Assembly: GCA_963528875.1 (NCBI GenBank)
Contig: CAURWT010000001.1
Coordinates: forward strand, 180,001-212,000
DNA from: an uncultured Candidatus Saccharimonas sp.
GTDB taxonomy: Bacteria > Patescibacteriota > Saccharimonadia > Saccharimonadales > Saccharimonadaceae
Length of the DNA: 32,000 bases
Reading direction: 5' to 3'
Positions 6,046 through 32,000 of the stretch are shown in pieces (position 1 is the stretch's first letter; every line of letters starts with the position of its first letter). The notes below the pieces were generated by a model. That model was not told the origin of the DNA. It saw only the letters and a list, made by a program, of their open reading frames with translations, and searched no databases. Position numbers and translations under genes: made by a program.

Positions 6046-6075
6046 CACTTTTTAAGAAAAAGGATTTAAATTTTT

Positions 6076-7170: not shown

Positions 7171-7177
7171 GATTTAA

Positions 7178-8225: not shown

Positions 8226-8239
8226 TTAAATAAAACGTA

Positions 8240-8911: not shown

Positions 8912-8914
8912 ATC

Positions 8915-13800: not shown

Positions 13801-15660
13801 TTAAAATAATTCATTCGGATCGGCGTAACCGTTAGTCATCATATTGTCGCCCTGGCGATTTTTTGAACTATTTGGGCTGGTTGAAATAAGCTGATGTTCG
13901 GTGTCACTGGCGATGATTTGAATATGAACGTGATTTTGGCCTGCAAAGAATAATCCTTGCCCAACTGGGAAGTTCGAAAGGCGCTTTCGTTCTTCTTCGG
14001 TCAATTTAAAGACATCGCTCAAAACATCAACCGCACTTGAAGATTGTTTTAAAAGTAGCTGCATTGAGCTGTTTGAAACAATCGCTCGGCCCATTTTTGA
14101 ACCCATAAAGTCTTCAACGTCCTGCGAAATTGTAGTAAGGCCAAGATAATATTTTCGAGCACGTTTTGCTAAACTGAATAAGAAGTTTGCTGAATCATCG
14201 TATTTCATTAACTGCCAAGCTTCATCCACGATAAGCATTCGTTTTTTCTGTTCAGAACGCACAATATTCCAGATGTGAGAAAGCACAATGTACATCGCAA
14301 CTGGGCGAAGTTCATCTTCAAGGTCGCGAATGTTAAACACCACCATCGAGTTATTGATATCAATATTTGATTGCTGTGAGAAAATTCCTGCGAAAGTTCC
14401 GGTTGTGTATTTTCGAAGGCGTTGTGCCAAGCTTGGTCCGCTTCCATCCATATGGACTAAGGTGTCGTAAAGGTTATGAATTGTTGGTGGTGTTGAATTA
14501 TGTGTAAGCGGATCTGAAGTAATTCCAGCTCGAGCATAAGTGTCAATAATTGCTTGATCGAGGTCGGCTTCTTCATTTGGTGAAAGCCCAATTGATTGCC
14601 CTGCACTAGTTCCACCAAGCATTAATCGAAATAGACCGTGAAGCGTTACGATATTTGCACGAAGCGCGTTGTCTGCTTCTTCGGCATCAATAACGTGTGG
14701 TAAATCGAAAGGATTAATTCGAACATCCGAGTTTAAACTGAGGCGAATATAGCTTCCACCAACGGCATCGCTTAATTTTTGATATTCATTTTCTGGGTCG
14801 ATAATTAAGACCTCTGCACCCATCATCATTGTTCGAAGAGCTTCAAGTTTTACTGTAAAAGATTTACCAGCACCAGATTTTGCGAAAACCACCATGTTTG
14901 CATTTTCGAGTGTATAGCGGTCAAAGATTACGAGCCCATTATTGTGCATATTAACGCCATAAAGAACACCATTTTCTTGGGTTAAATCGGCAGAAGTAAA
15001 TGGAAATGAAGTTGAAATTGCACCAGTGTTCATATTTCGCCGAATTTGCAATTGGTCGGAAAGTTGTGGAACGGCAGATTTTAAACCTTGTTCCTGCTGG
15101 CTTGATGCAACTTTAGAAAACAGCATTTGCTGACCAAGCATTGTTTCAACTTTACTTCGAACAAAATTAAGCTCGTCAAGACTATCGGCATAAATTGTTA
15201 AATATAGACCGAAACGGAAGAACTTTTCAGCACCAAGTTGTAACTGATCTCGGAGCTCTTCGGCATCGTTCAAAGCAGCTTCAAGCGCTGGATCTCGGGT
15301 TCTACCTTTTTCGTTATTAATCGAAAGATCAGCTTCAAGCTGAGTAACTTTTCGACGAAGGTTTTTCATGACGATTTCAGTTTCAACAGGATAAATAAAC
15401 ATTGAAACATCTAAAACTTCATCAGCATTTAAGATTGGCGAAGCCCATCCAGTATAAAGCTGGCGGGGATAACCATAAACATAAATTGTTTGACCATATT
15501 TTGTGCCAAGTCGAAAATATCCTGAGTGAAATTCAAGACTTGATGGTGCGATTAAATCTCGCAAAGTGTTAATACCAGTTAAAAACGCTTGTTCAACTTC
15601 AGCTTGTTCTTGTGCTCGTTGTTGGGCTGCAATATCAACTGCATCTTTTTTCTTCACCAT
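13801..15660 (-). CDS. virB4: VirB4/TrbE-family type IV secretion ATPase
   Basis: 619 aa. Walker A FAKSGAGKSFT (aa 259-269), Walker B RMLIVDEAWQL (aa 474-484). N-terminal DLIAPSS...YGYPRQ...GW region is typical of VirB4-like ATPases of Gram-positive-type T4SS. Confidence 0.92.
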   Translation of the reverse strand: MVKKKDAVDIAAQQRAQEQAEVEQAFLTGINTLRDLIAPSSLEFHSGYFRLGTKYGQTIYVYGYPRQLYTGWASPILNADEVLDVSMFIYPVETEIVMKNLRRKVTQLEADLSINNEKGRTRDPALEAALNDAEELRDQLQLGAEKFFRFGLYLTIYADSLDELNFVRSKVETMLGQQMLFSKVASSQQEQGLKSAVPQLSDQLQIRRNMNTGAISTSFPFTSADLTQENGVLYGVNMHNNGLVIFDRYTLENANMVVFAKSGAGKSFTVKLEALRTMMMGAEVLIIDPENEYQKLSDAVGGSYIRLSLNSDVRINPFDLPHVIDAEEADNALRANIVTLHGLFRLMLGGTSAGQSIGLSPNEEADLDQAIIDTYARAGITSDPLTHNSTPPTIHNLYDTLVHMDGSGPSLAQRLRKYTTGTFAGIFSQQSNIDINNSMVVFNIRDLEDELRPVAMYIVLSHIWNIVRSEQKKRMLIVDEAWQLMKYDDSANFLFSLAKRARKYYLGLTTISQDVEDFMGSKMGRAIVSNSSMQLLLKQSSSAVDVLSDVFKLTEEERKRLSNFPVGQGLFFAGQNHVHIQIIASDTEHQLISTSPNSSKNRQGDNMMTNGYADPNELF

Positions 15661-15662
15661 AA

Positions 15663-16439
15663 TTAAAATTCTCCTTGATCTGGTCGCTCACCTTCAGCTT
15701 TTCGAACGAATAAACTTGCTGTATCATGAAAATCGCCCAAAGGTTCATAAACGGCCGTATCTGGGTTATAAACATTATAATAAAGTTCACCGAGTTCTTT
15801 AGTGTTTAATTGAACTGATTTGATTCCCATTTGGTAAAGACCACCAGTAATTGAATCAACGCGTTTTTTAATTTCTTCGCGTGCTTTATCCCAAGTGTTG
15901 CGGTCTATTTTCGAAATTTGAGCACCCGGTTTTGCAAAAATTTTACCAAAAAATCCTTTTGCTGAACCCTTTAAATTATTTAAGTCACCACTCGGATAAT
16001 AAGGAACCACAATAAAGAAAGATTTATCCATAATATTCGCACTTCGGCTAAGGCTATCAATAAAGTTAATGTAATCTTCCATTAAATCGCCAAGTAACAT
16101 ATTATCTTGAGCTACTTGAATTTCAGCCAATTTATTTAAATATGGTTCAATGTCAACTCGTTGTGAACGAACTAAAATCTGAATTGGAAAAGTTAATGCG
16201 TTCAAAAAACTTTGATAAGAATATTCCACACCCTCGCGTTCTCGTGCGCTCATAAGATCGAAGTTAATTGATTTGCAAGCAATAACAGCACGAAAGCTTC
16301 CGTCGCGCATTACCACCATTCCTTCGCGAAGTTCGGCGATTTCAAGCGAATTTTGTGTTGAAGATGGATTTGTTGGAGTATTTATATTTGTTTGGTTTTG
16401 GCTCTGATTTTGTTGATTATTAACTTGATTATTGTTCAT
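15663..16439 (-). CDS. Soluble T4SS-associated protein of unknown function with a Q/N-rich N-terminus
   Basis: 258 aa with no TM segment, packed 1-2 nt from both neighbours. The core (LEIAELREGMVVMRDGSFRAVIACKSINFDLMSAREREGV..FLNALTFPIQILVRS) reminds me of pre-ATPase N-domains of VirB4-like proteins. This is recollection only. Confidence 0.7.
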   Translation of the reverse strand: MNNNQVNNQQNQSQNQTNINTPTNPSSTQNSLEIAELREGMVVMRDGSFRAVIACKSINFDLMSAREREGVEYSYQSFLNALTFPIQILVRSQRVDIEPYLNKLAEIQVAQDNMLLGDLMEDYINFIDSLSRSANIMDKSFFIVVPYYPSGDLNNLKGSAKGFFGKIFAKPGAQISKIDRNTWDKAREEIKKRVDSITGGLYQMGIKSVQLNTKELGELYYNVYNPDTAVYEPLGDFHDTASLFVRKAEGERPDQGEF

Positions 16440-16440
16440 A

Positions 16441-17871
16441 TTACCTCAATGAAATTACTACTTCTTTTTCACCCAAGTCGACCTCGTTCGAATTTTCTTG
16501 GGCTTTCTTTTCTTTATCTGCTAGTTTGTTTGCTTGGCGTGCAAGTGTTTCCACCGAAAGATCTTTTCCCTCTGAAACTAATCTTTTCATTTCTGCGCTG
16601 ATCTTATTTGCAGATTCTCGTTCTGTGAGATGTCTTCTATTTACAAAAGGATTATTCTCTGGATTGGTAGAAATTCTAACTTTCGGATCTCGCTTTTCAT
16701 GCTCAACAGTTTCATTAATTTGCCTAATTCGTTCAAAACTGTTATTAATTCCTTCTAAATCTTGATTAAAATCATCTGGCGGATTTTCGAAATGGTTTTG
16801 TGGCTCTGATTGTTGAGCTGGTTGTGGTGCAGGTGGTGTAAAATTCGAAAGTGGCTGTGGTGAAGACTGCGTAAATTGCTGCGGTTGATTTTGCCAATTT
16901 GGTGAAATAACTGTTTGATTCATTGAATCTGGATAAGGATTGTAATTTAAATGAATATTTTCATCAAAATTTTGCTGCGGTTGATTTTGCCAATTTTTAT
17001 TTTGCTGAAAATTATTATAATTTTGTACTTGCGATTGATTCCAATTTTGCCAATTCGAAAAAGCCCCATTTTGCATTTGTGGCTGATTGTGGTTAAAATT
17101 CATTTGGTATTGATTTTGCTGATTCTGAGAAAAGGCTGTTGGCTTAGCTTCAGCTGGTTCTGAAACTTGAACATCTTCAAATTTAATATTGTCTGAACCT
17201 TCGTATCGATTTTTAGGGTCAAAATAATAAGTTTTGTCTTGAATGTTTTCCGAATTTTCATCTGTAAATTGTGCTAAATTTCGGGCCATATCAAGGTTTT
17301 GCATAATTTGCTGTTTTCGTCGCTGATCGTGTTGGTTTAATAAATTATCAACATTCGAAGAAACTCGTGAATTATCAAACATATCTTCGGCTGCACGAGC
17401 TTCATTTGAATATTCTTCACGAACAGTTGTATTAACTGGTGCAATAGAGTGTTTAATGGCCCACCCTTCAGTATCAACAATATCTGCTAAGTAGCTAAGT
17501 CTACGTGAGGCTTCATTTTGTGAAAGTTCTTTTGTGAGGTGCTCTTCTCTATTTACTGGTGCAGAAATTTGAATTAAATGTTCTACGCCATCCGGCTGCC
17601 AAAAACGCTTGTTTGGTTTTAAATAAAATGAAACAACTGCTGCAAGATAAGTTTCCATTGGTTGGTCTTTTCGAAGCGGTAAAGCAAGCGCACCAAAAAA
17701 GATAATAATAGGTAGTGGTAAAATAATTAGCCCCGGGAAAATTCCCCAAAGAAAAATCTCCAGCGCAATACAGCCTGCCACAATAATCAGGTAAATGAAT
17801 TGCCGAAAGTTAAACGGCCCAAGCAATTTGTCATCAGCCTCAACGTCTTGAGGAACTTTATAAACGCTCAT
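16441..17871 (-). CDS. PrgI-family (VirB3-like) membrane protein fused to a long Q/N/P-rich low-complexity region
   Basis: 476 aa. The N-terminus YKVPQDVEADDKLLGPFNFRQFIYL + two TM helices matches the PrgI-family pattern. aa 246-370 are dominated by Q, N, P and W (NWQNQPQQ occurs twice). The C-terminus is a charged, coiled-coil-like segment. Confidence 0.8.
   Translation of the reverse strand: MSVYKVPQDVEADDKLLGPFNFRQFIYLIIVAGCIALEIFLWGIFPGLIILPLPIIIFFGALALPLRKDQPMETYLAAVVSFYLKPNKRFWQPDGVEHLIQISAPVNREEHLTKELSQNEASRRLSYLADIVDTEGWAIKHSIAPVNTTVREEYSNEARAAEDMFDNSRVSSNVDNLLNQHDQRRKQQIMQNLDMARNLAQFTDENSENIQDKTYYFDPKNRYEGSDNIKFEDVQVSEPAEAKPTAFSQNQQNQYQMNFNHNQPQMQNGAFSNWQNWNQSQVQNYNNFQQNKNWQNQPQQNFDENIHLNYNPYPDSMNQTVISPNWQNQPQQFTQSSPQPLSNFTPPAPQPAQQSEPQNHFENPPDDFNQDLEGINNSFERIRQINETVEHEKRDPKVRISTNPENNPFVNRRHLTERESANKISAEMKRLVSEGKDLSVETLARQANKLADKEKKAQENSNEVDLGEKEVVISLR
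16876..16996. repeat. Perfect 25-nt direct repeat inside the Q/N-rich coding region
   Basis: ttgctgcggttgattttgccaattt occurs at 16876-16900 and again at 16972-16996, exactly 96 nt (32 codons) apart. Each copy encodes NWQNQPQQ. Confidence 0.85.
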
Positions 17872-17909
17872 TCTTTATTTGCCCACTTCTCCTTATTTCA
17901 ATAATATTA

Positions 17910-17918
17910 ATTTTAACA
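17910..17918 (-). promoter_or_regulatory. Candidate extended -10 promoter (TGtTAAAAT) for the prgI-like/virB4 transcription unit
   Basis: Minus strand reads TGTTAAAAT, about 40 nt upstream of the ATG at 17871. Confidence 0.45.
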
Positions 17919-17950
17919 TATTTTCGAAAAAAAATAAAGCTTAAAAATAA

Positions 17951-17980
17951 AATAGGCAAAACATTTAGATTCTGCCTATT
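17951..17980 (-). terminator. Hairpin terminator/attenuator overlapping the stop codon of the VirB6-like gene
   Basis: Perfect 8-bp stem aataggca (17951-17958) / tgcctatt (17973-17980), followed on the minus strand by TTATTTTT. The TAG stop (17976-17978) lies in the stem. Confidence 0.55.
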
Positions 17981-20681
17981 TCTTGTCTTTAATATTTTCG
18001 GGCTTCCAATTTCCTCCCAAAACTTTATCATAAAGACCTTTATTATTTAGTTCAATCTCTTTAAGCATTTTGCGAATTTCAGCACCTTGCACGGCATTGA
18101 GTTTTCCGTATTCTGAAGGGTTTTCGTTAATAGCCTTAACACTTTCGAGTGTGGATCTAATGGTTTCGTTCGACATATTCGAAATTGCTGATTTATCCCA
18201 AATGATTTTCATTGCGTCATTTGAAGCTTTAATGATTTTATCGTCTGAGACATTTTTAGCGTAATTGTCGTGAATGGCATTATAAACTTCTTTCGAATTC
18301 ATTCCATTTACGGCGATATTTTCAAGTGCTGCACCACCAATAAATTGAAGATCGTCTTTTTTGGTTTTCTTGAAAGCTTCAACCAAGTCGTTTCGGTTAG
18401 CGTTCAATTCTCCACCAATTTCAGTTTTACCAAGTGAATCGATAGCACCTTTTAAGTCGGTTGTTCCCATAAACTTCTCGGCTGTTGCAGCACGTAAGTT
18501 TTTAGTAATTTCGAAATCAATTCCATCTTTCTGGATTTTTTCACCCATATTTTTCGAAAAGATTTCACTATAATCATTGCCTGAAAAATTAAGCGATTTT
18601 GTAAGGTTTGTGAGTGATTCGACTTCTTCTTTGTTCTCTTTCGAAGCTGCTACTAAAGAACTTGCAAGCGCCGAGACTTTTCCAGCTTCACCACGCACGC
18701 CAGATGCGGTTTCGAGCAAGTCGTTGCTGTAGCGCATATTATTTGCCATTGCATTATTGAGTGAAAGATTATTATTCTTTTCAGCCAGTTTAAGAGCATT
18801 TGTTTGATTCATATTATCAACAAATCGAAGTGCTTGTTCGCCAAATTTCCCGCGTAAAGCTTTTAGTGATGCTTCGCTTAAATCAACAACACCGGTAATG
18901 TTTCCGTTTGCATCTTTTTTGAGTGTTGAATTAAATAATTCTGCTTTAATTTGTGAAAGCCCAGCATTTGTACTTGCGGTTGCACGATTAAGAGCTTCAG
19001 TTGCTAACATTTCCTGATATTGTGTATCTGAGTTTATTAAATGCTTTTTACGAGCATTATAATACATGTTCGAAAACGCATTCGAACCTTCTGGCATATT
19101 TTGAATTGCATCTCGTCTTTCATTTTCAAGCTCCGTAAAGCGTTCTTTTTGATATAATTCTGCAATTGATTTTGAAGCACCAATTCGACGTCGGCGGTTG
19201 TAGTTCATTTGACTAATTCGTACAGGTAGTGAATTTGGCTTTTCTGCAATTGCACGATTTCGATACATTTCTTGGTTTTCTGAAAGGAATTTCTTTGCAC
19301 GATCAACCGGACCTTTGTTTGGATTATTGATGATTCCAGCAAATTTACCAAGCAGACTACCGCTAATTCGCATAATTGTTGGCGTAATTGCTAGCGGCAC
19401 AACTTGTACTACGGCACCAAGTAAGAAAATTAAAAAGCTACCGTTCGAACTTGCAATAATTGTTGTTCCGATTAATTGCGAACCTCCAAAAAGAAGAGAA
19501 ATTAACGGATACATCACGAGCATCGTAGTAAATAAATCTTTCCATTTTTCGAACCATTTTTCAGTATTTGGCAAAATATTCGCCGCAAATGCAAGTGGCG
19601 CTAAGAAAACTAAAACAATAATAATTGCCTGTCGCGCGGCTAAAATTACTAAAGCTACAACCGCCGAATAAATTACCGCAACTAGTGCTCCAAGAATCAT
19701 CATTACTGCAGCACCAATATTACCCATAGTTGCAACCGTTACAGTGTAAGCGCCATAAGCCACCACGCCAGTTCCGCTCAAAACTGCAGCGGTCATATTT
19801 GACCAATCAAGATTAGCTGTTTTTATCTTATTTTCACCGCCATTATTAAAAATGCTATCTCTAATCCCAATCAAAAGATTTTGAGTTTGTGCGCCTAAAA
19901 TATTCGAAATATCAACTAAAATTGCACAAATATAATAAGAAACATTAATTAAAATTGCTGCAATAATTAGCTTTGGCAATAATTTCTTAATTCCATAATT
20001 ACTGATTCCAAAACCTGTTACTTGCGAATAAATTACAAAAACAAATCCAATCACAAAAAAGACGTTTGCAACATTTCGCATATAATCCCAAACTTGAAAA
20101 AGACCAGATTGATTAGATGTATAAAGTGGTTGAACTCGCAAAAATGCTTGGAGCCAGTCATAAATACCATCCATCCATTTCGAAATCGTATTAGCGACCA
20201 TACAAACCATCCAGCCACCGCCACCCTCAACACTACAAAGTGATTTATCTTCATTTTTCGAAACACCATCAACTTTAACATCTTGTGCTTCGCCGTTTTG
20301 TTTTACATTTCCAAGCGCACTTACATCAAATGAATAAATTTTTCCGCTTGAAGCATCATTCTCGTTTTCAAGAGCAATTACTGTTGTTTTATTTTCACCA
20401 GCATTTAATGAAGAATTTTCGGCATAAAGTTTTTTTGAACGAATTGATTCTGGGAATCTTGAAGTATCAGAAACTTTTGAATATGTTTTTCCGTTATATG
20501 TTATGCCATTTTTTGAAGAATCTGTCCATTTTGCTCCATCAATAGCAAGGGCGATATTCGAATTAAAAAATCCCAAGATTGCGACTACTGTAAAGATCGC
20601 GATGAAAAACACATTTCGAAAATCTTGAGTTTTTGCTTTTTTGAACCTCGCCAAAGTTTGCATATGACCTGATTTTATCAT
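17976..20681 (-). CDS. VirB6/TrbL-like polytopic T4SS channel protein with an N-terminal exposed domain and a long hydrophilic C-terminal half
   Basis: 901 aa. Signal/anchor segment, about 110-aa exposed region, then a block of at least 6 TM helices (aa ~150-450) of the kind seen in TrbL/VirB6, PrgH and TcpH-type proteins, then about 450 hydrophilic residues. The true start is probably Met7 (ATG at 20663) because a consensus promoter overlaps the first ATG. Confidence 0.8.
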   Translation of the reverse strand: MIKSGHMQTLARFKKAKTQDFRNVFFIAIFTVVAILGFFNSNIALAIDGAKWTDSSKNGITYNGKTYSKVSDTSRFPESIRSKKLYAENSSLNAGENKTTVIALENENDASSGKIYSFDVSALGNVKQNGEAQDVKVDGVSKNEDKSLCSVEGGGGWMVCMVANTISKWMDGIYDWLQAFLRVQPLYTSNQSGLFQVWDYMRNVANVFFVIGFVFVIYSQVTGFGISNYGIKKLLPKLIIAAILINVSYYICAILVDISNILGAQTQNLLIGIRDSIFNNGGENKIKTANLDWSNMTAAVLSGTGVVAYGAYTVTVATMGNIGAAVMMILGALVAVIYSAVVALVILAARQAIIIVLVFLAPLAFAANILPNTEKWFEKWKDLFTTMLVMYPLISLLFGGSQLIGTTIIASSNGSFLIFLLGAVVQVVPLAITPTIMRISGSLLGKFAGIINNPNKGPVDRAKKFLSENQEMYRNRAIAEKPNSLPVRISQMNYNRRRRIGASKSIAELYQKERFTELENERRDAIQNMPEGSNAFSNMYYNARKKHLINSDTQYQEMLATEALNRATASTNAGLSQIKAELFNSTLKKDANGNITGVVDLSEASLKALRGKFGEQALRFVDNMNQTNALKLAEKNNNLSLNNAMANNMRYSNDLLETASGVRGEAGKVSALASSLVAASKENKEEVESLTNLTKSLNFSGNDYSEIFSKNMGEKIQKDGIDFEITKNLRAATAEKFMGTTDLKGAIDSLGKTEIGGELNANRNDLVEAFKKTKKDDLQFIGGAALENIAVNGMNSKEVYNAIHDNYAKNVSDDKIIKASNDAMKIIWDKSAISNMSNETIRSTLESVKAINENPSEYGKLNAVQGAEIRKMLKEIELNNKGLYDKVLGGNWKPENIKDKK

Positions 20682-20700
20682 AATTTAACCCTTTTGTCAA
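20672..20700 (-). promoter_or_regulatory. Near-consensus promoter TTGACA-17-TGaTAAAAT for the VirB6-like gene
   Basis: On the minus strand: -35 TTGACA (20695-20700), 17-nt spacer, TG (20679-20680), -10 TAAAAT (20672-20677). The ATG at 20663 begins 9 nt after the -10, so the transcript would be nearly leaderless. Confidence 0.6.
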
Positions 20701-20768
20701 CCTTAAAATTAAGTTTTTAGAATAAAACACTTGCTTTTTCCCTAAAAATGGTTTAAAGTATAATTATC

Positions 20769-21218
20769 ATGGTAAACAAAATAAAAAATATAATAATAGT
20801 TGGGCTGATTTTGACAAGCTTTTTCGCGGCTTTTCAGAGTATTATTATTTCGAATTATGGCTCTAGCTATGCTTTTGCTGAAGAGCTTGTGGAGGATGGT
20901 AATGGAAATCTAACCACGCCAAATGGTAATAACGGTAAAAGTGGTGGATCTCCCGCTGAAGCAAAAACTGCAATTCTCCCTTCAGACTGGAAAATTGAAG
21001 ATATTTTAAATATGGTTTTAGTTGTAGTAACTACTGGCGTTGGAATTGCAGCAGTTGGCTCGATTGTCTTTGCTGGCGTTTTGTATATTACCGCTCGCGA
21101 TAATGCTGCACAAGTTTCGAAAGCTAAAACAATGATTATGAATACAATTATCGGTATTATAGCTTATATTTTAATGTGGGCGTTCTTAGAGTGGATTATT
21201 CCAGGAGGAATTTTATAA
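20769..21218 (+). CDS. VirB2/TrbC-like T4SS pilin paralog 1
   Basis: 149 aa. Signal peptide, variable region, then a two-helix hydrophobic core with a polar loop (AGVLYITARDNAAQVSKAKTMIMNTIIGIIAYIL) shared with the five following ORFs. Confidence 0.8.
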   Translation: MVNKIKNIIIVGLILTSFFAAFQSIIISNYGSSYAFAEELVEDGNGNLTTPNGNNGKSGGSPAEAKTAILPSDWKIEDILNMVLVVVTTGVGIAAVGSIVFAGVLYITARDNAAQVSKAKTMIMNTIIGIIAYILMWAFLEWIIPGGIL

Positions 21219-21646
21219 TGAAAAAGATTATTCTAGCGATTTTTATAACTTTTATGCCAGTTTTATATTTTTCGAATAGTGCTTATGCGGCTGGTTGTAA
21301 CGATAATCAAACTTTTTTCGGTCTCCCCGCTTGGTATCGTGGATTAACTAAATCTGGCGAAGGCGGATGCCAAATTAAAAATATTGGGCCGTCTGGAAAG
21401 GGTGAAGTTACTTTAGAACAGTTTGTCTGGACAGTGGTTGCGAATGTTATTGATATGGCCTTTCGAATTGCTGGTGTTGCTGCAATAGGATTCATTATTT
21501 ATGCAGGTTATCAATATATGATTGCTGTTGGTGACCCAGGAAAACTTGCAGGTGCTAAAAAATCACTAACTAATGCAATAATCGGACTAGTGATTGCGGT
21601 TCTTGCTTCAACAATAGTAACGTTTATATTAGGAATTTTAGGATAA
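21218..21646 (+). CDS. VirB2/TrbC-like T4SS pilin paralog 2
   Basis: I place the start at 21218 (MKKIILAIFITF...) rather than the track's 21176. AGGAGG lies upstream and there is a TAATG overlap with paralog 1. Cys pair (AAGC...GGC), then the core AGYQYMIAVGDPGKLAGAKKSLTNAIIGLVIAVL. Confidence 0.8.
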   Translation: MKKIILAIFITFMPVLYFSNSAYAAGCNDNQTFFGLPAWYRGLTKSGEGGCQIKNIGPSGKGEVTLEQFVWTVVANVIDMAFRIAGVAAIGFIIYAGYQYMIAVGDPGKLAGAKKSLTNAIIGLVIAVLASTIVTFILGILG

Positions 21647-21966
21647 TGAAAGAATATAGATTTTTAGCAGAAGCATCCTTTGATAAATCAAAAGTATTAA
21701 ACGGGATTGATACTTCAAATAAAAACAAAGCTAGCGATGCTTCGATGCAGAATGCTTTCAATACTGCTTTTATCTGGGCTGGAATTATCTGTGTAATTAT
21801 AATTATTGTGGCAGGATTAACATTTATAACGGCTGCCGGAAATCCAGGAACAATTTCGAAAGCAAAATCTGCACTAATTTACGCTTGTGTAGGTATTGTT
21901 GTAATCATATCAGCCGCACTAATTGTTAACTTAATTCTTGGCGGATTACTAACGGGGTCAATATAA
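21646..21966 (+). CDS. VirB2/TrbC-like T4SS pilin paralog 3 (no obvious signal peptide)
   Basis: 106 aa. TAATG overlap at 21644-21648. Hydrophilic N-terminus, then the core AGLTFITAAGNPGTISKAKSALIYACVGIVVII. Confidence 0.75.
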   Translation: MKEYRFLAEASFDKSKVLNGIDTSNKNKASDASMQNAFNTAFIWAGIICVIIIIVAGLTFITAAGNPGTISKAKSALIYACVGIVVIISAALIVNLILGGLLTGSI

Positions 21967-22514
21967 TGAAAAAAATAATTTTAATAAGTAGCATTTTATT
22001 CTCAATAATTCTATCACCTATTGCTTTTGCGGAAGGTGGAACTAATGGGACTAATGGTAGTGGAGGAACATTTAACGCTTGCAAACATGTTGTTTCTGGA
22101 AAGACTGCAGTTTGTTCTGGTGATTCAAAAAATGCTACAAATATTGCTAAAAATATAATCTCCATTTTCCTGTGGGTTGTTGGTATAGCGGCGGTTATTG
22201 TTATTATTTACGCGGGAATAACATTTGTAACAGCAGCTGGAAATCCATCAGCAATTGCTCGAGCCAAAACAATGATAATTTATGCTGTTATTGGTTTAGC
22301 AGTTGCAATTCTCTCTTATGCGATTGTTAATTTCGTTATTAACACTTCAAGTGGAAAAGGAGTTAATGGAGGACCATCTGGAAGCTCGGGCAATTCTAGT
22401 GAATCTAATAATTCAAGTGGCTCAACTAATACTGGATCACAAAGTAAAAACCAAAATGGTGAAAATAGTTCAGGACAAAGTTCAAGCGGTTCGAATAGCT
22501 CAAATAATAATTAA
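21966..22514 (+). CDS. VirB2/TrbC-like T4SS pilin paralog 4 with a S/N/G-rich C-terminal tail
   Basis: 182 aa. TAATG overlap at 21964-21968. Signal peptide, Cys pair (NACKHVVSGKTAVCSG), core AGITFVTAAGNPSAIARAKTMIIYAVIGLAVAILSYAIVNFVIN, then about 55 aa of S/N/G low complexity. Confidence 0.8.
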   Translation: MKKIILISSILFSIILSPIAFAEGGTNGTNGSGGTFNACKHVVSGKTAVCSGDSKNATNIAKNIISIFLWVVGIAAVIVIIYAGITFVTAAGNPSAIARAKTMIIYAVIGLAVAILSYAIVNFVINTSSGKGVNGGPSGSSGNSSESNNSSGSTNTGSQSKNQNGENSSGQSSSGSNSSNNN

Positions 22515-22534
22515 AACAATATAAGGAGAATAAA

Positions 22535-22924
22535 ATGAAGAAAATTTTAATAGCTTTTGGATTAATTCTTGCGGTGACTGGCTCTTTTGCCTTCAATGCT
22601 GGATTTTTCGAAAAACAAGCTTATGCAAATAGTGCAGCAGATTTAATTAAACAAGGTGCAGATTCAACAGGCCAACAAGATACTCGTTCAGCTGGTGATA
22701 TTGCTAAAGATGTTGTAAATATAATGTTCTTTATCATTGGTGTTATGGCGGTTATTATGATTATTTGGGGTGGAATTCGATATGTTCTTTCAGCTGGAAA
22801 TAGTGCTGCTCTCACTAGTGCGAAAAATACAATCGTCTACTCTATTATAGGTTTAATTATCGCAATCCTCGCATACGCAATTGTGAACTTTGTTATTAAT
22901 ACTGTTGCAGGCGGCAATCGGTAA
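22535..22924 (+). CDS. VirB2/TrbC-like T4SS pilin paralog 5
   Basis: 129 aa. AAGGAG Shine-Dalgarno upstream. Signal peptide, then core GGIRYVLSAGNSAALTSAKNTIVYSIIGLIIAILAYAIVNFVIN. Confidence 0.8.
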   Translation: MKKILIAFGLILAVTGSFAFNAGFFEKQAYANSAADLIKQGADSTGQQDTRSAGDIAKDVVNIMFFIIGVMAVIMIIWGGIRYVLSAGNSAALTSAKNTIVYSIIGLIIAILAYAIVNFVINTVAGGNR

Positions 22925-22985
22925 TCATAAGACTTCAGATTTAAGTTTGTTAAGTTGAATGATGGATGGCTAATAATTAAAATAC

Positions 22986-23013
22986 TTGCAAAATAGTAAA
23001 AATTTGATATAAT
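22986..23013 (+). promoter_or_regulatory. Promoter TTGCAA-16-TGaTATAAT for pilin paralog 6
   Basis: -35 TTGCAA (22986-22991), TG (23005-23006), -10 TATAAT (23008-23013). Confidence 0.55.
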
Positions 23014-23052
23014 TTAGGTATATATAATTTAAGAAAGGAAATGTAATTTAAA

Positions 23053-23469
23053 ATGAAAAATATTGTAAAAATGGCTCTATTGACCGCTGCGACAATATTC
23101 ACTGTTGGTGCTACTACACTTGTAACAATTCCAGCTTACGCTGCTGATTGTAAGGTTACTGGTGGTTTGAAATCTGCTGATAGCTGTGCTAAAGGTGTTC
23201 AAGAAGAAAATGGTGGTCCAACAAGCTTGTTTGATGGCGACTCTCCAATTTTCACGACTGCAATCAATATTATGTTATTTATAATTGGTATTCTTAGCGT
23301 GATTATGCTTATTTATGGTGGTATTCGCTATGTGCTTTCGAGTGGTGATGCTGGTGCTGTTCAAAACGCTAAAAATACAATTATGTATGCTATTATTGGT
23401 CTTGTAATTGCAATCCTTGCTTACGCAATTGTTAACTTCGTTATTCATTCGATTACTAATAAAGAATAA
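23053..23469 (+). CDS. VirB2/TrbC-like T4SS pilin paralog 6 (own promoter and terminator)
   Basis: 138 aa. Signal peptide (..IPAYA/AD), Cys pair (ADCKVTGGLKSADSC), core GGIRYVLSSGDAGAVQNAKNTIMYAIIGLVIAILAYAIVNFVIH. Confidence 0.8.
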   Translation: MKNIVKMALLTAATIFTVGATTLVTIPAYAADCKVTGGLKSADSCAKGVQEENGGPTSLFDGDSPIFTTAINIMLFIIGILSVIMLIYGGIRYVLSSGDAGAVQNAKNTIMYAIIGLVIAILAYAIVNFVIHSITNKE

Positions 23470-25926: not shown

Positions 25927-27384
25927 ATGATTAAAAAAATACCAAAAAGAATAAAAAATAGTAAGATTATATATATTTCAATTATCATTTTATTACTTTT
26001 ACTGAGTGGAATTATATTTCTTAATAAAATTAACCATAATGTAGAAGAAAAACACAATCAAGATATTACAAAGTATTATTTTAAAGATTCGAAATATAAT
26101 GGAATTAGCTCAAAATTTATTGAAAGAAAAAATTCAAAAGAAGATGCTATATTAGAAATCCCTGTTACGAAGAATAATAAAATCAATGAATTTATAAATA
26201 ATAAAATTCAAGAAATTGATGATACTTTTAAAGATGATGCGAAAAAATCAACTTTCGAAAATATTTCAACTGAAAGAATTAGCTATCAAGTTTATTATAA
26301 TAACGATGATGCTATTTCAATTTTAATTTCAATCAAACAAGATACTCATGGAGCGAATTTGAATGATCAAAATTTATTTTGGACTTTCAATGCTAAAAAT
26401 GGAGAAATTATAAAATTTAGTGACTTTTTAAACAATAAAGAGAAAGATAAATCTAATATTTTAGAAATTATTAAAAATAAAATTCAAGATTATTTAAAAA
26501 ATAGTAAAAAAGAATTCTCGAATGAAATTTTGAATGATTTAGATTTTGAAAGTTTCGAAAATATAATAATATTAGATAAACAAACGATTGATTTCCCTTT
26601 CTCTAAAGGTCAAATTATTCCTTCTAATTTTTCTTCGGTTCAATTTCAAATTAAAATTTCAGAAATTTCTAATTTCTTGCAAAATGATTTTTCAAGAAAA
26701 ATATTCGAAGTTCCTGATATACAAAATTCGAAACAAGTTCAAAAGACAGCGCCATTAACTTCTCAATCTCCTCTTCTTGATAAAGATTGTTCGAAATGTA
26801 TTGCTTTAACCTTTGATGATGGACCGGGCATATATACTGATAAACTGCTTTCTTATCTTCAAAGTTATAAAGCGAAGGCAACTTTCTTCATGATTGGCCC
26901 AAGTGCTCAGAGATATCCTTCTATTGTAAAGCGAGTTTTTGATAATGGACATCAAATTGGTAATCATACTTGGTCTCATTCTTCCTTGCCAAGCCTATCT
27001 CCTGCGCAAATTCAAAATGAAATAGCCTCAACCAATAATATTTTACAAGGAATTACGGGTGTAAAACCTACTACACTTAGACCTCCATATGGTGCAACTA
27101 ATGCGGCCGTGCAAAGAGTTGTTTCTAATCTTGAAATGAGTTCAGTTTTATGGTCTGTTGACACTCGCGACTGGGCGGATAGAAATTCGAATATTGTTTG
27201 CAATAGAGCAATCTCGAACGTACGACCCGGTGCAATAATTTTAATGCATGACATTCACCGAACATCAGTTGAAGCGGTTCCATGTATTCTGCAGAATTTA
27301 AGTTCTCAAGGTTATCAATTTGTAACTGTTGATAAGTTGCTTGGTAATCTTCAGCCTGGGCATATATATTATTCAGCAAAATAA
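25927..27384 (+). CDS. Membrane-anchored polysaccharide (peptidoglycan-type) deacetylase, NodB homology domain
   Basis: 485 aa. N-terminal TM and a K/N-rich unknown domain of about 270 aa. The C-terminal NodB domain shows the motifs LTFDDGP, HQIGNHTWSH, LRPPYG and ILMHD. Confidence 0.88.
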   Translation: MIKKIPKRIKNSKIIYISIIILLLLLSGIIFLNKINHNVEEKHNQDITKYYFKDSKYNGISSKFIERKNSKEDAILEIPVTKNNKINEFINNKIQEIDDTFKDDAKKSTFENISTERISYQVYYNNDDAISILISIKQDTHGANLNDQNLFWTFNAKNGEIIKFSDFLNNKEKDKSNILEIIKNKIQDYLKNSKKEFSNEILNDLDFESFENIIILDKQTIDFPFSKGQIIPSNFSSVQFQIKISEISNFLQNDFSRKIFEVPDIQNSKQVQKTAPLTSQSPLLDKDCSKCIALTFDDGPGIYTDKLLSYLQSYKAKATFFMIGPSAQRYPSIVKRVFDNGHQIGNHTWSHSSLPSLSPAQIQNEIASTNNILQGITGVKPTTLRPPYGATNAAVQRVVSNLEMSSVLWSVDTRDWADRNSNIVCNRAISNVRPGAIILMHDIHRTSVEAVPCILQNLSSQGYQFVTVDKLLGNLQPGHIYYSAK

Positions 27385-27425: not shown

Positions 27426-27515
27426 GGAGAGGTGGCCGAGTGGTTGAAGGCGCACGACTCGAAATCGTGTATGCGGGCAACCGTATCGGGGGTTCGAATC
27501 CCCCCTTCTCCGCCA
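27426..27515 (+). tRNA. tRNA-Ser (anticodon CGA), CCA encoded
   Basis: Folded by hand, 90 nt. Acceptor and D-arm are identical to the Ser(UGA) gene. Anticodon stem CACGA/TCGTG with loop CTCGAAA, long variable arm, T-arm GGGGG-TTCGAAT-CCCCC. Confidence 0.93.
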
Positions 27516-27522
27516 CGAAAGT

Positions 27523-27545
27523 AGCTCGCGTTTGCGGGCTTTTTT
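27523..27545 (+). terminator. Rho-independent terminator after tRNA-Ser(CGA)
   Basis: agctcgc (27523-27529) / gcgggct (27534-27540), with one G-U pair, followed by TTTTT. Confidence 0.6.
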
Positions 27546-27553
27546 CGTATCTA

Positions 27554-27582
27554 TTGACTTTAGCTTTAGTGTCTGTTAAAAT
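27554..27582 (+). promoter_or_regulatory. Promoter TTGACT-17-TGtTAAAAT ahead of the 131-aa membrane protein gene
   Basis: -35 at 27554-27559, TG at 27574-27575, -10 at 27577-27582. Confidence 0.55.
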
Positions 27583-27634
27583 TGAAAGATATTTTTATAA
27601 ATAGTTCTTTTAGAAATGAGGTCAATGTCAATAT

Positions 27635-28030
27635 ATGAAAAAGATGTTTTTTCAATTTGTTTTTGTTTATGTGTTTTCGCTAATTGCTGCGATATTACTG
27701 TTAATTCTCAAATCAGAAAGTTCAGAATTTAGCTATTTTATAGCACGAATTTTACTTTTTGGATACAGCGTACTAACGAGTGCGTTGCTTTTTGTTCCAA
27801 GATTTATAATAGGGTTATTAGAGAAGATTTTTAAGAATAGTGTTGATGACCTTAATGAATCTCTGGAAGATTCAATATCTTGGCCATATATTGTTTTATT
27901 TGTTTTTATTCTAGATGTATTCTTCGGATTAACTTTATTGATCCCTATATATGTTATTATACAATCTAGTTATATTTTATATAGGTTTGCTAGGATATAT
28001 AAAACTTTAATTTCAGAAAATCCAGAATAA
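27635..28030 (+). CDS. Hypothetical small polytopic membrane protein
   Basis: 131 aa with 3-4 hydrophobic helices and no recognisable motif. Lies in the TTCGAA-free segment. Confidence 0.6.
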   Translation: MKKMFFQFVFVYVFSLIAAILLLILKSESSEFSYFIARILLFGYSVLTSALLFVPRFIIGLLEKIFKNSVDDLNESLEDSISWPYIVLFVFILDVFFGLTLLIPIYVIIQSSYILYRFARIYKTLISENPE

Positions 28031-28239
28031 TAACCTCTCTAAGTCAGCAAAAGCTGGTTTTTTTATTTTTTAAAAATAAAAAAACTGCTATTTTTCTGAT
28101 TCCGATAATGTATTTGAAATAAAAAAGAATGCTGACAAATAAACATTCTTTTTTATGTTCACTTTGATAAACATTATAAAATTTGTCTGTTTAGTTACCA
28201 AAAAGCTACCAATAGATTTGTAATTTTTAAAAAATAAAT

Positions 28240-28326
28240 TAGTAGTACTATATTTAAATACCTAGTTATCTAAAAGAATAAATTTACTAGATTAGTAAAT
28301 TAGAATTTGCCAGTAATGATATTACT
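28240..28326. repeat. Three short palindromes sharing TAGTA/TACTA-type half-sites in a 400-bp AT-rich non-coding gap
   Basis: tagta-g-tacta (28240-28250). aatttacta-gat-tagtaaatt (28281-28301, perfect 9-bp arms). agtaat-gat-attact (28312-28326). Confidence 0.4.
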
Positions 28327-28430
28327 ATAGTTTGTTTCTATATAATCATTTATGGTTATTGAAGGAAAATACATTAATAACTACTATGTGCTTTTTTATA
28401 TAGCCTAGATGATTTTTACAAACACCCAGA

Positions 28431-30293
28431 TTATATATTAGCTAGCTTTGATTTGTAAAATTCTAACTCATCGTTAATTCTCATAACATAAAAAATGACT
28501 ATTTGGAGCAACTCTAAGTATTTTTTTTGATGTTCCTCTTCACTTTTATAAGAAAATTTTCCATGAGAGAATTTATTTCGAATCTTCAACCCATTACCAT
28601 ATTTTTTATCATCCAAAATATAAGATAAATAATTACTTTCATATTCAGAAAAAAGATTATCTGAATATTCACAATACCCTTTCTTGCAAAGGTCTTCTGT
28701 AATATCTAGTATCAATTTATCTTTATAGTATAGGCAATACGTACCTGACTTCCATAATTTATTCAAAATGTTAATTTCTTGGAAATTTGTAAATTTTATT
28801 ACATCATTTGATAGTCTTAAAATGTTCTTTTCTATTAGGATTTTTATTTGTTCTACCTGATAATCAGCAAAATCAGAAATCTTTACTCCTTCTTTTATAT
28901 GTTTGAAGAAGGTTTTAAGTTCTTTTTTTGATGAAATAAAGCTAAGTGGACTTTGGTCAGAAAAAAGCGCAGAGAACAATGCAGAATTATCAGGTGTGTT
29001 GTTCAATTTGATAAATTTTTTCTCATTGAACGATTTTAATGAAGCATAAGAGGAGGCTTTAGATTTAATCTCTAATAAATCTTGGTTGATTTCCCCATTT
29101 CTAACAAATAGTTCGTATTGGTCTAAGATACTATCCATTTCACAAATTATTGATTTCCCTCTTTCGTAATAAGAGGATTCTTTATTAGAAGCATGGAAAT
29201 GAAAACCTTTTATATCTAACTCCGTTTCAAGATAAATATTGAAATACCATTCTATTATCTCTTCGACATCAATTTTATTTTGTTTTAAGTAATTAAAATA
29301 TACCTTAAATAATAAATTGTGGTAAAATTTTAAGTGAGGACAATAAGAATCATAATGAGCATTTGATTTGTGAGAAAAGAAACGAGTGAAGCTGAATGTT
29401 TCTTCATTCGCAACTAGCCAATGCAATCCCGTTTCACGATTAAAGAAGCCAAGTAAATAAAAATTATTTAATAACGTCGGAAAATCATGATGTTCATCTA
29501 GTATAGTTTTATTTAAAAGAATACCATTCTCAATAGGCTCACATAATTTATCAGAATCTAAAGGCTTGATGCCAACTGATATAGAGTAATGCATCCCTTC
29601 ATTAGTTTCAAAATGTTTTTCCCAAAATTTATCACTTTTTCTTTTAGCTAAAAGCTTAACCTCATCATCAAACTCATATTTGCTTAATTTTTTATAATCA
29701 ACAATTGATTGTAAATAATTTGGGTTAATATTATCTTTCTGACAATATTCTCTTGCTAGATTATTTATCTCTTCATTTGTGATACCTAACTTAATGTATA
29801 AACCATTAGAATCTATGAATTTTCCTGATTGATGATTTAAGAAAAATTCTATATTTCTGGACCGAGAGAGAAAATTTTCTTTGATAACTTGCGGAAATAG
29901 GCTAATCAGTTTTGCAACATTTCTAAGATTTATTGTCTGGATATTATATTTTTTAATATATGATTCAAACTGACTAACATCATCTTTATTAATTTTTCCT
30001 AAGAATAATACTAACTCCCAGAATATGTCTTTATAAAAAATGTCAATGCTATCATAGTCTATTTCAAAAATGGTAATTGGGAAATTCTTGGATATATCGT
30101 TATGAAATTTTGAAATTAGATGTTTGAAGTTATAAAATTGATTTTCTTTTTTAATTAATTTCAGGATTAAATAGGTTTCTATTAAATTATTAATTTCAGC
30201 CGAAGGTCTATAAGCTTTAATGCAGTTTAGAGCTATATCATATTGGTATGGCTCTATTACATTGTTAGGAGTATGAAATCTTTTATGTTGCAT
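28431..30293 (-). CDS. Large uncharacterised protein with a C-terminal HEPN-like RNxxxH motif; candidate defence effector
   Basis: 620 aa, very AT-rich, K/N/F/Y-rich. No P-loop or nuclease motif that I recognise, except GLKIRNKFSHGKF (R572-H577, nt 28563-28580) followed by a predicted helix. Starts 77 nt downstream of the MmeI-like gene on the same strand. Confidence 0.75.
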   Translation of the reverse strand: MQHKRFHTPNNVIEPYQYDIALNCIKAYRPSAEINNLIETYLILKLIKKENQFYNFKHLISKFHNDISKNFPITIFEIDYDSIDIFYKDIFWELVLFLGKINKDDVSQFESYIKKYNIQTINLRNVAKLISLFPQVIKENFLSRSRNIEFFLNHQSGKFIDSNGLYIKLGITNEEINNLAREYCQKDNINPNYLQSIVDYKKLSKYEFDDEVKLLAKRKSDKFWEKHFETNEGMHYSISVGIKPLDSDKLCEPIENGILLNKTILDEHHDFPTLLNNFYLLGFFNRETGLHWLVANEETFSFTRFFSHKSNAHYDSYCPHLKFYHNLLFKVYFNYLKQNKIDVEEIIEWYFNIYLETELDIKGFHFHASNKESSYYERGKSIICEMDSILDQYELFVRNGEINQDLLEIKSKASSYASLKSFNEKKFIKLNNTPDNSALFSALFSDQSPLSFISSKKELKTFFKHIKEGVKISDFADYQVEQIKILIEKNILRLSNDVIKFTNFQEINILNKLWKSGTYCLYYKDKLILDITEDLCKKGYCEYSDNLFSEYESNYLSYILDDKKYGNGLKIRNKFSHGKFSYKSEEEHQKKYLELLQIVIFYVMRINDELEFYKSKLANI

Positions 30294-30370
30294 ATCTGTG
30301 ATATCCTTCTTAAATTTGTGCGTTTCTATGTGATGCTTAAAGTAATTGAGTTTATCTTGAAGACTTTTTA

Positions 30371-32000
30371 TTATTTGGTTTTTGTTATATCTTCATACAT
30401 CTCAAACAATCTTGCTACTGTTTCACTTTCGGTTAACCAAGTTTTCTTGCCATCAATATTTTTTTGCATACCATAAGCTTCCATAACCGCTTTATCGTTA
30501 GCTTGGTGGGCTTGACGAAGTTCAGCAGGCATGGTTAACTCATCATAGAGATCTGCCAAGGAGCTATCGGGATATAGCGCACGTGCATCAAGAATAGCTT
30601 GGGCAGTTTTAGAAATCTTCTCTTTTTGAGCTTCGGTCACTTCTGGCCAAGGGAAGTTGTTGTAAACTATCTTAGCTGAATAACGATAATCTGATTTAAG
30701 ACGACCAGCAACCGTACGCATCCAAGCCATATGGACATTAGAAGTTAAAATACTAAAGTCATAAAGAGTAGCATTTGGAATAATTTGTACAGCATCACTT
30801 GAAATTATTTGACCATCGATAAAACCAATCGGTATATATCTTCTGTTTTCTGAAGATACCCTTGGAATTAGTAAATAATCATTATCATTATGTCTTATCT
30901 CTTGGAATTCCATGGCTCTTTCAGCGCTATCTTGAGTTTGTTTTTTAGGACTATTTTGTCGAAACTCTTTTACTAATTGTATCCTATTTAGAATTGGCGG
31001 AATATTCCGTAAAGTACTAGGATTTTGTCCTACTAACCATAAGCAATATCTTTCTTTATTGTTTATAAATTCTGAAGCTCCATATACTTGCCGTATCATT
31101 AAGTCAGCTTGTGGATATTTCTTAATAAGTTCGTTCTTTTCTTGCAATGTTAAGAAAAGATATCCCCCATCAGTTGGTTTACTGCCATAAACCATTGGTA
31201 AGACTTTGCATATTGGCTTGCTTCTGCTATCAATGAAAATTAGGTCTCCATCGATTAAATATGGATTAATTTGTTGAACAATTATTTTTGTTTCGTTATC
31301 ATAAATAACTTTGTTTTTTGAATTATCCAATACAGAAAATCCAATTATTACACAGTGAACAGCTGCTTTATCTTTTGCTTCACTATTCCACTTAAATGTT
31401 CTGTATGCAAAGTCTATATGGATTCCAAATCGTTCGTAAAGTGGTTTCCAGACACTAGACACTTGCTCTCCCTGAGTTATTGAATTTGTTGATACTAGAG
31501 CAGTTCGTATAGAACTTCCTTGCATTAGGAGGCTCGCTTTAAAATACCATGCTGAAACAAAATCAATTTTGCCAGCTGTTTTATATGGTTTACTGTTCTC
31601 ATCAACATAGACACTCAATAAATCAGCTTTTTGCTTAGGTGATTGGAGTGAATACCCCAAAAATGGTGGATTACCAATAATATAGCTCAACTTATGTTTA
31701 GGAACCACTGTCTCCCAATCAATCTCTAAAGCATTCCCTTCAACAATATTTGTATAAGACTTAAGAGGTAGAAAATCAATGTTTGTATATACAATATCTT
31801 TAGTCTCTTCCAACATTTGGCTTTCTGCAATCCAAAGTGCGGTTTTAGCTACAGAAACGGCAAAGTTATTAATCTCAATGCCATAAAATTGATTCAGTTG
31901 GACTTTGATAAGTTCTTGTCCGACGTCAAGCGCAACAGTGTCTCCCACATAGAGCTTAATGGCTTCATTCTCTAAGCGTCGAAGAGAAACGTATGTTTCC
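30371..32000 (-). CDS. MmeI-family (Type IIG/IIL) N6-adenine DNA methyltransferase / RM fusion, N-terminus outside the window
   Basis: The frame stays open upstream of the track's GTG at 31948 all the way to the window edge (..ETYVSLRRLENEAIKLYVGDT..). YGIEIN, IIGNPPF (motif IV, nt 31661-31672), STNSITQGEQV, FAYRTFKW, and the C-terminal NNFPWP...LADLYDELTMPAELRQAHQANDKAVMEAYG are hallmarks of MmeI-like enzymes. Confidence 0.88.
   Translation of the reverse strand, partial: ETYVSLRRLENEAIKLYVGDTVALDVGQELIKVQLNQFYGIEINNFAVSVAKTALWIAESQMLEETKDIVYTNIDFLPLKSYTNIVEGNALEIDWETVVPKHKLSYIIGNPPFLGYSLQSPKQKADLLSVYVDENSKPYKTAGKIDFVSAWYFKASLLMQGSSIRTALVSTNSITQGEQVSSVWKPLYERFGIHIDFAYRTFKWNSEAKDKAAVHCVIIGFSVLDNSKNKVIYDNETKIIVQQINPYLIDGDLIFIDSRSKPICKVLPMVYGSKPTDGGYLFLTLQEKNELIKKYPQADLMIRQVYGASEFINNKERYCLWLVGQNPSTLRNIPPILNRIQLVKEFRQNSPKKQTQDSAERAMEFQEIRHNDNDYLLIPRVSSENRRYIPIGFIDGQIISSDAVQIIPNATLYDFSILTSNVHMAWMRTVAGRLKSDYRYSAKIVYNNFPWPEVTEAQKEKISKTAQAILDARALYPDSSLADLYDELTMPAELRQAHQANDKAVMEAYGMQKNIDGKKTWLTESETVARLFEMYEDITKTK

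Follow-up and report, generated by a model that had tools for sequence, protein, structure and literature searches.

How does a bacterium with a very small genome come to carry a block of defence genes beside a tRNA gene, and is the tRNA gene the place where that block entered? Saccharibacteria combine tiny genomes with few known defences, and hardly any routes of gene gain have been documented for them. The locus that raises the question lies in a 32,000-nucleotide (nt) stretch of Candidatus Saccharimonas sp. (assembly GCA_963528875.1, contig CAURWT010000001.1, positions 180,001 to 212,000), which we call the window. An initial annotation had proposed that a foreign defence island begins here directly after tRNA-Ser(CGA). 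We find instead that the segment is very probably a 5,260-bp foreign defence islet without an integrase, made up of two modules from the mobile defence-gene pool of oral Bacillota. One encodes a 620-amino-acid (aa) protein of the family PDC-S56 (hereafter S56) with a HEPN-type motif, and the other an MmeI-family type IIG restriction-modification (R-M) enzyme.

Boundaries of the insert and its presence in relatives

The sequence was extended rightward through a matching metagenome contig, L001, to 40,293 nt (window coordinate = 40294 minus L001 coordinate), and positions beyond 32000 are given in window numbering continued past the edge (extended coordinates). Metagenome contigs of the window's own species match it at 98.4-100% identity, and all 19-21 of them carry both MmeI and S56; the exact 620-aa S56 protein is encoded on at least 21 metagenome contigs. 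Three relatives, L042, L041 and L021, have flanks that are mutually 94-98% identical, which places them in one (sister) species, and each shows the locus in a different state. L042 is empty: it has pgi, about 85 bp further on a 128-aa gene, then tRNA-Ser(CGA) and a deacetylase gene, with merely ~6 bp at the island position, and is otherwise collinear with the window. L041, a complete genome (CP076102.2), holds MmeI only, and L021 holds MmeI and S56, as do L028 and L030. Comparison of close relatives downstream of tRNA-Ser(CGA), a check that the initial annotation had suggested, therefore reveals the presence/absence polymorphism typical of genomic islands, in three states.

BLAST breakpoints against these genomes delimit the insert. 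Homology to L042 stops at 28082 and restarts at 33343, and homology to L041 stops at 28078 and restarts at 30380, so that the insert spans 28083-33342 in extended coordinates (28083-32000 within the window), with an S56 module at ~28083-30379 and an MmeI module at 30380-33342. Homology to Gemella sanguinis DNA begins at 28089, and the three breakpoints together put the left junction at 28079-28089. The insert sits in the terminator region between two convergent genes, pgi and a native gene for a 131-aa membrane protein (27635-28030, forward strand). In the empty site this region is a terminator pair, including a hairpin, AAAAACCGCC...GGCGGTTTTT, directly downstream of pgi, and the insert splits the two arms of that hairpin. 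The last native sequence on the left is the terminator of the 131-aa gene (28041-28060, forward strand), which was found by pattern scan and is conserved in the empty site; on the right the island ends 27 bp past the pgi stop codon. It does continue past the right edge of the window, as had been noted, but by just 1,342 bp.

The 131-aa gene had been counted as a small membrane protein among the cargo, and this part of the initial description does not stand. Its product has 3-4 hydrophobic segments in a hydropathy profile and homologues in L042 (50% aa identity) and in L021, L030 and L041 (66-67%); it has no match in any Streptococcus or Gemella locus and none in Pfam, NCBIfam or PADLOC. All saccharibacterial relatives have the gene, the empty-site L042 among them, and no Bacillota locus does; it is therefore native. 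In L028 (the equivalent of window positions 27860-28142) it is partly deleted next to the island junction, with 74 aa aligning.

Could the block nevertheless be a classical island, inserted by a tyrosine-recombinase integrase at the 3' end of tRNA-Ser(CGA), with the integrase and an attachment (att) repeat lying beyond the window? The 3' ends of tRNA genes are classical attachment sites, and the TTCGAA-poor stretch described below begins directly after this one (27426-27515, forward strand; ARAGORN and Rfam), which is followed by a terminator-like hairpin at 27523-27540 (forward strand, pattern scan). The left junction, however, is 567 bp away from the tRNA gene, beyond the native 131-aa gene and its terminator, and the empty-site genome keeps its 128-aa gene between tRNA and pgi. 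The initial annotation saw no integrase and no repeat of the tRNA 3' end in the window and proposed to seek both further right; the extended sequence supplies neither, and the island ends near pgi, with pgi and a Mur ligase gene directly following MmeI. Neither the island nor the 10 kb to its left and right yielded an integrase or recombinase gene, and no transposase is present at the island. A search for direct and inverted repeats over the island and the tRNA gene returned AT-rich chance matches only, with no att-like repeat, target-site duplication or tRNA 3'-end repeat. Neither hallmark of a tRNA-integrating island, insertion at a tRNA 3' end with a direct repeat or an integrase inside, is thus found; integration at the tRNA gene is refuted for this locus, and we hold it to be very improbable. 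tRNA-Ser(CGA) is a native neighbour of the islet and not its attachment site.

More distant relatives (L022-L024 and L043) have the tRNA gene by polA and pgi by a MacB/ABC transporter gene. Neither place holds an island, and because of their rearranged synteny these relatives were not accepted as clean empty sites. A 40-aa open reading frame upstream of MmeI (33208-33330, extended) is frame-shifted in L041, belongs to no family and is probably not a gene.

A host palindrome at chance level in the insert

Shuffles that preserve dinucleotides give 19 +/- 4.5 TTCGAA sites for the window, which in fact has 99. All except one lie at or before 27493 (98 of 99); the remaining site, at 28577-28582, is the sole TTCGAA within the island and the only one beyond tRNA-Ser(CGA). 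At the host density of 3.6 per kb, ~16 sites would be expected in 27516-32000, close to the ~15 of the initial annotation, whose observation of this deficit is fully borne out. For the 5,260-bp insert the expectation is 18.9 (Poisson P = 1.2e-7 for one or fewer). The TTCGAA-free gap at 28577-33830 (extended) measures 5,253 bp and is the longest in 40 kb, the runner-up being 1,293 bp; TTCGAA is back at normal density from 33830, inside pgi and ~1.8 kb past the window edge.

Host enrichment of the motif is about tenfold over mononucleotide and fivefold over dinucleotide expectation. Sites occur in all three codon frames (54/23/19) as well as in intergenic DNA and terminators, so that TTCGAA behaves as an iterated palindrome of the host at the DNA level and not as a codon effect, and the motif extends to TTTCGAAA, with T at -1 in 81 of 127 sites and A at +6 in 80 of 127. 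Since the island count equals mononucleotide chance expectation (~2), the contrast reflects enrichment in the host rather than depletion in the island, and we attribute the lack of the palindrome to the island being recent and foreign. TTCGAA is also enriched in L021, L022-L024, L041, L042 and the extended stretch 33830-40293, in relatives with 34-42% G+C; L043, with 2 sites in 5.9 kb, shows no enrichment, and individual sites come and go between lineages.

A parallel is found in cyanobacteria, whose highly iterated palindrome HIP1 (GCGATCGC) is rare in DNA that was acquired recently. Like HIP1, TTCGAA/TTTCGAAA is a frame-independent palindrome, ~tenfold enriched and missing from a foreign block; unlike it, it is a different motif in a different phylum. 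A drive of the very-short-patch (VSP) repair type, a candidate that these data neither favour nor dismiss, would predict depletion of TTTGAA and TTCAAA, which is not seen, both being about twofold above mononucleotide expectation. We found no link between TTCGAA and Saccharibacteria or Patescibacteria in the literature searched.

Other measures of composition separate the island unevenly. Along the extended sequence, 28-33 kb is the only part where an order-3 Markov host-versus-Streptococcus score falls below zero, and together with the TTCGAA count this score gives the island the host-atypical composition expected of a genomic island. Of the windowed profiles that had been proposed as a check, TTCGAA density and the Markov score single out the island, whereas G+C and tetranucleotide distance do not. 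The lower G+C that had been noted at 27.6-30.3 kb is real (0.25-0.27 at 27.5-30.5 kb) but not diagnostic, because native stretches are equally low (0.23 at 2.0-3.0 kb, 0.26 at 25.5-27.0 kb), and the island's tetranucleotide distance of 23.4 falls inside the host range of 9-30; both measures were rejected as island markers because they do not separate it from native low-GC stretches. The AT-rich, non-coding gap of ~400 bp with palindromes, also noted initially, is present at 28031-28430, between two convergent gene ends, and carries AT-only inverted repeats.

Relatedness to DNA of oral Bacillota

The island DNA is 82-94% identical to Streptococcus and Gemella DNA, and this, with its absence from the collinear L042, upholds the initial view that the segment is a foreign defence island. 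In a scan of species-representative genomes, S56 was found at 14 loci, 12 of them in Streptococcus genomes (S. mitis, S. cristatus, S. infantis, S. halitosis and others) and 2 in Candidatus Saccharimonas metagenome-assembled genomes. The S56 gene (28462-30283) shares 93.5-93.7% nucleotide identity with S. mitis and S. cristatus. In Gemella sanguinis, identified through exact RpoA and SecY matches, the S56 allele is very common (92% aa identity), and nucleotide identity is 94.05% over 28089-30317, that is, over the whole S56 module including its AT-rich non-coding tail (28083-28430) up to the junction. The same Gemella locus holds a 198-bp remnant of the MmeI 5' end (90% identity). In Streptococcus sp. 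HSISM1, MmeI is followed by a degraded S56 in the same order at ~80% nucleotide identity, with partial homology to the AT-rich tail. The MmeI protein itself shares 88-89% aa identity with the copy in the Nanogingivalaceae genome (L041) and with proteins of S. australis, S. parasuis and S. salivarius. The S. australis gene is cargo of a small element with an integrase, DUF3173 and a Rep protein, and related copies reside on streptococcal plasmids. There was no match in the phage collection searched.

The surroundings of S56 in these genomes vary. In S. mitis and S. cristatus (L025/L026, ~6000-13200) it lies among Nmad2/Nmad3, an FRG-domain protein and an HTH regulator and not by MmeI, and from this company of other defence-type genes it appears to behave as a stand-alone cassette. 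In Gemella sanguinis (L044-L047, 4987-8208), GyrI-like and DUF1706 genes take the place of MmeI, and the S56 block has an adhesin gene on one side and the end of the ribosomal protein operon on the other.

Within Saccharibacteria, S56 is confined to one locus in two species and is polymorphic there, and identities of island and flanks are decoupled. Against L028 and L030, whose flanks are 95-99% identical to the window, the island is a mosaic of 57-97% identity; against L021, whose flanks are 68-82% identical, the S56 module is 91-97% identical and the AT-rich tail 96%. In a neighbour-joining tree the saccharibacterial S56 copies form two groups nested among streptococcal ones and are not monophyletic, and over 1,069 nt the S56 of L021 matches S. 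infantis OMI786 exactly. The decoupled identities, the nested tree and the exact match all point to acquisition from Bacillota, spread through homologous flanks and continued allele replacement. As judged from these sequence comparisons, then, the island DNA is an acquisition across phyla.

A vertically inherited native region, its odd composition due to local selection such as selection against TTCGAA within these genes, is the least probable of the alternatives that we considered. It would fit the zero count of TTCGAA in MmeI of three saccharibacterial lineages, but it is contradicted by the presence/absence data, with an empty site inside one species, and it leaves no place for an identity of up to 94% to another phylum or for an island more alike between species than its flanks.

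High identity gives no direction by itself, and the block is fixed in the window's species, so one might also suppose that the genes are native to Saccharibacteria and were acquired from them by Streptococcus and Gemella. We consider this transfer in the reverse direction unlikely. The TTCGAA signature of the host is absent from the saccharibacterial and the Bacillota copies alike (0-1 sites per gene in most, and counts at chance level across the Bacillota S56/MmeI loci). Against the restricted saccharibacterial distribution, S56 is found in at least 11 Streptococcus genomes of several species, in varied defence contexts, and on very many Gemella sanguinis contigs, while streptococcal MmeI occurs on integrative elements and plasmids.

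Donors and recipient share oral samples, and one relative, L021, has the 1,069-nt exact match to S. infantis. That Bacillota reads were joined to a saccharibacterial contig in assembly or binning is, even so, highly improbable, because identical junctions turn up in more than 20 contigs that were assembled independently, from different samples and with different assemblers. Saccharibacterial core genes flank the block on either side in these contigs, and the MmeI junctions are found in the closed 691,584-bp genome as well.

The S56 protein

The S56 gene occupies 28431-30293 on the reverse strand, which is also that of MmeI, and lies downstream of it. Its 620-aa product matches PADLOC PDC-S56 over residues 3-615 (E = 6.6e-114), which is a PADLOC candidate system only; the family comprises 1,017 clusters at 50% identity, and PDC-S56 is not mentioned in the literature searched. 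Near the C-terminus lies a HEPN-type motif, R572-N573-x3-H577, within the consensus ...LDLRNKYxHG..., in which, across 55 S56 relatives of 22-44% identity, N573 and H577 do not vary and R572 is at least 90% conserved. An RNxxxH in so conserved a consensus corresponds to the Rx4-6H signature of HEPN proteins. The protein is large and, in a confident AlphaFold model (predicted local distance difference test 89.8, predicted template-modelling score 0.86), all-alpha-rich.

The window protein itself matches no Pfam or NCBIfam family, and a Foldseek search of the PDB with its model gave no significant match (best E = 0.42; Csx1-Crn2 at E ~1.3). Weak sequence-profile hits to CNOT1 in the PDB (E ~0.007) were judged spurious. 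Among the 55 relatives, five have sub-threshold Pfam matches to DUF4209 and one to HEPN_RiboL-PSP. DUF4209/C6orf70 is a HEPN family that occurs in R-M operons (Anantharaman et al. 2013, PMC3710099), and S56 resembles proteins of this type in being large and helical, in its RNxxxH near the C-terminus and in adjoining an R-M gene. It differs in having no Pfam match of its own, only the sub-threshold ones of 5/55 relatives, and no significant structural match. We infer that S56 may be an RNase-type abortive-infection effector of the HEPN class.

The MmeI-family enzyme

A spacer at 30294-30379 closes the S56 module on the right, and from 30380 onward the sequence is again homologous to L041, the genome with MmeI only. 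The MmeI-family gene lies on the reverse strand at 30371-32000, where the C-terminal 542 codons fall within the window; the full gene encodes 941 aa and reaches 33196 (extended). The window part matches Pfam MmeI_Mtase, MmeI_TRD, MmeI_C and Eco57I, to which the full protein adds MmeI_N and MmeI_hel. One polypeptide thus unites MmeI_N (a PD-ExK nuclease), a helical spacer, a gamma-class N6-A methyltransferase, a target recognition domain (TRD) and a C-terminal domain. It aligns collinearly over its full length with MmeI (PDB 5HR4, E = 4.6e-200) and is classed by PADLOC as REase_MTase_IIG (E = 1e-214). Its D...EQK aligns with the stretch of MmeI that holds the nuclease motif (D...ExK), and an NPPF motif is present. 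The initial annotation was right about an MmeI-family enzyme and, at the level of the motif, about a HEPN-like protein, and the islet accordingly holds the cluster of at least two defence-system genes expected of a defence island: REase_MTase_IIG and the candidate PDC-S56. With all five MmeI Pfam domains and both motifs conserved, the enzyme is presumably an active single-chain R-M enzyme. With nuclease, N6-adenine methyltransferase and TRD in one chain, it would mark self DNA and cut unmarked invaders.

It differs from MmeI (5HR4) in two respects. First, its TRD alleles have been swapped between lineages. The swap-prone TRD region (30600-31500, reverse strand) stands out in identity profiles with 54-75% identity to L021 and L030, while the TRD part of the gene alignment shows 88-90% identity to S. 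australis and 84-92% to the Nanogingivalaceae genome; there are at least two TRD types, and each occurs in both phyla. Second, one sampled population (two contigs, L007 and L016) carries a C-to-T nonsense change at codon 14 (L001 coordinate 7137; extended 33157). The change leaves an 862-aa product from a downstream start and possibly inactivates the nuclease domain. Apparent MmeI truncations in L010 (scaffold gap) and L019 (contig end) are artefacts, and the nonsense polymorphism in L007 and L016 alone is real.

Element type and route of entry

Defence genes are known to gather in islands or hotspots without integrases between conserved core genes. The islet resembles these in its clustered pair of defence genes, its housekeeping flanks, its strain-variable content (empty, one gene or two) and the exchange of its modules; unlike them, it is just 5.3 kb long, lies in a reduced epibiont genome of ~0.7 Mb and holds cargo common with another phylum at ~94% nucleotide identity. 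With tRNA-linked genomic or pathogenicity islands it has in common a nearby tRNA gene, foreign composition and variable presence, but it is without integrase or att repeat, and a native gene lies between tRNA and insert. As an element type it is an ordinary small defence hotspot and not a new one. The features that deserve notice are the identity across phyla, the polymorphism with its three states and the iterated TTCGAA palindrome of the host.

How might such a block have entered? Natural competence is known in Saccharibacteria, which incorporate DNA through homologous recombination (PMC10633639), and the engineered cassette in that study was likewise placed in an intergenic region between two convergent open reading frames. 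Bacillota DNA may have been taken up in dental plaque by natural transformation and joined to the terminator region between pgi and the 131-aa gene by illegitimate or homology-facilitated recombination. From there it could have passed between saccharibacterial genomes by homologous exchange. Later piecewise exchange, including TRD swaps and S56 allele replacement, would then have continued among saccharibacterial species and Bacillota. That TTCGAA has failed to build up in MmeI in most lineages would likewise follow from such continued replacement. The cargo genes suggest an anti-phage function for the islet.

Several points weigh against this reading. A junction signature of donor and recipient (target-site duplication, or a series of microhomologies) has not been established, and the overall G+C and tetranucleotide usage of the island are no outliers. 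MmeI has zero TTCGAA in three saccharibacterial lineages (the window, L021 and L041) whose flanking sites turn over, and this calls for repeated replacement or recent spread, neither of which is proven. Some relatives are metagenome scaffolds, and mosaic S56 alleles, such as that of L021 with its match to S. infantis, could be partly assembly artefacts. Finally, the defence role of PDC-S56 has the standing of a PADLOC candidate, and its HEPN assignment comes from a motif and weak profile hits, with no significant PDB match. Even with these points in the balance, we regard an integrase-less islet from oral Bacillota as much the best explanation of the locus.

Significance for Saccharibacteria

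A defence module can here be followed at base-pair resolution from the mobile pool of oral Bacillota into a Candidate Phyla Radiation (CPR) genome and on to other CPR species, with all three intermediate states preserved within one species. The locus offers a concrete substrate for testing natural transformation in situ, and a candidate R-M-linked HEPN effector for experiment. The TTCGAA signature, for its part, makes it simple to screen whole genomes of this lineage for DNA acquired recently.

It is tempting to speculate further, although we think this less probable than otherwise, that Nanogingivalaceae are in ongoing, repeated DNA exchange with oral Streptococcus and Gemella, and that TTCGAA/TTTCGAAA stems from an active drive, marking foreign DNA. 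If so, there would be in-situ transformation from Bacillota, or perhaps physical association with them, beyond the known actinobacterial hosts, and TTCGAA/TTTCGAAA would give these genomes an inbuilt marker of foreign DNA and, roughly, a clock for it.

Genomic context and further observations

The host is an oral Saccharibacterium of Nanogingivalaceae type. Its closest complete genome is the closed CP076102.2 of a Candidatus Nanogingivalaceae bacterium, and its pgi homologues are named Candidatus Saccharimonadales. Right of the window edge (extended), the completed MmeI gene and the doubtful 40-aa reading frame are followed by pgi (33370-34413), the Mur ligase gene and further housekeeping genes. 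In the left 27 kb of the window lie ruvA, ruvC, dnaA, dnaN, recF, genes for cell-wall hydrolases and a type IV secretion cluster that includes several pilin paralogues. ARAGORN found three tRNA genes, tRNA-Ser(TGA), tRNA-Arg(GCG) and tRNA-Ser(CGA), and an Rfam scan of 24.5-32 kb gave three tRNAs with overlapping sub-threshold hits and nothing else.

The presence of dnaA, dnaN, recF, ruvA and ruvC (window 4218-8215 and 166-1257), with a change in the sign of GC skew near 4 kb, suggests that the window spans the replication origin; the island lies ~24 kb away from it. Six small pilin paralogues come after the other genes of the type IV secretion cluster (TraC-like, PrgI, TrbL_3), the whole region spanning 13801-23469. 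The number and sequence of these paralogues vary among strains that are otherwise 98-100% identical (for example L001 and L002), which marks a strain-variable pilin cassette region.

A polysaccharide deacetylase gene (25927-27384) sits between tRNA-Arg(GCG) and tRNA-Ser(CGA), and its exact product is encoded on 19 metagenome contigs. In the relative L022 the two tRNA genes are separated by just ~110 bp. The gene has low G+C (0.26) and a host-like TTCGAA density, and is probably an older rearrangement or insertion.

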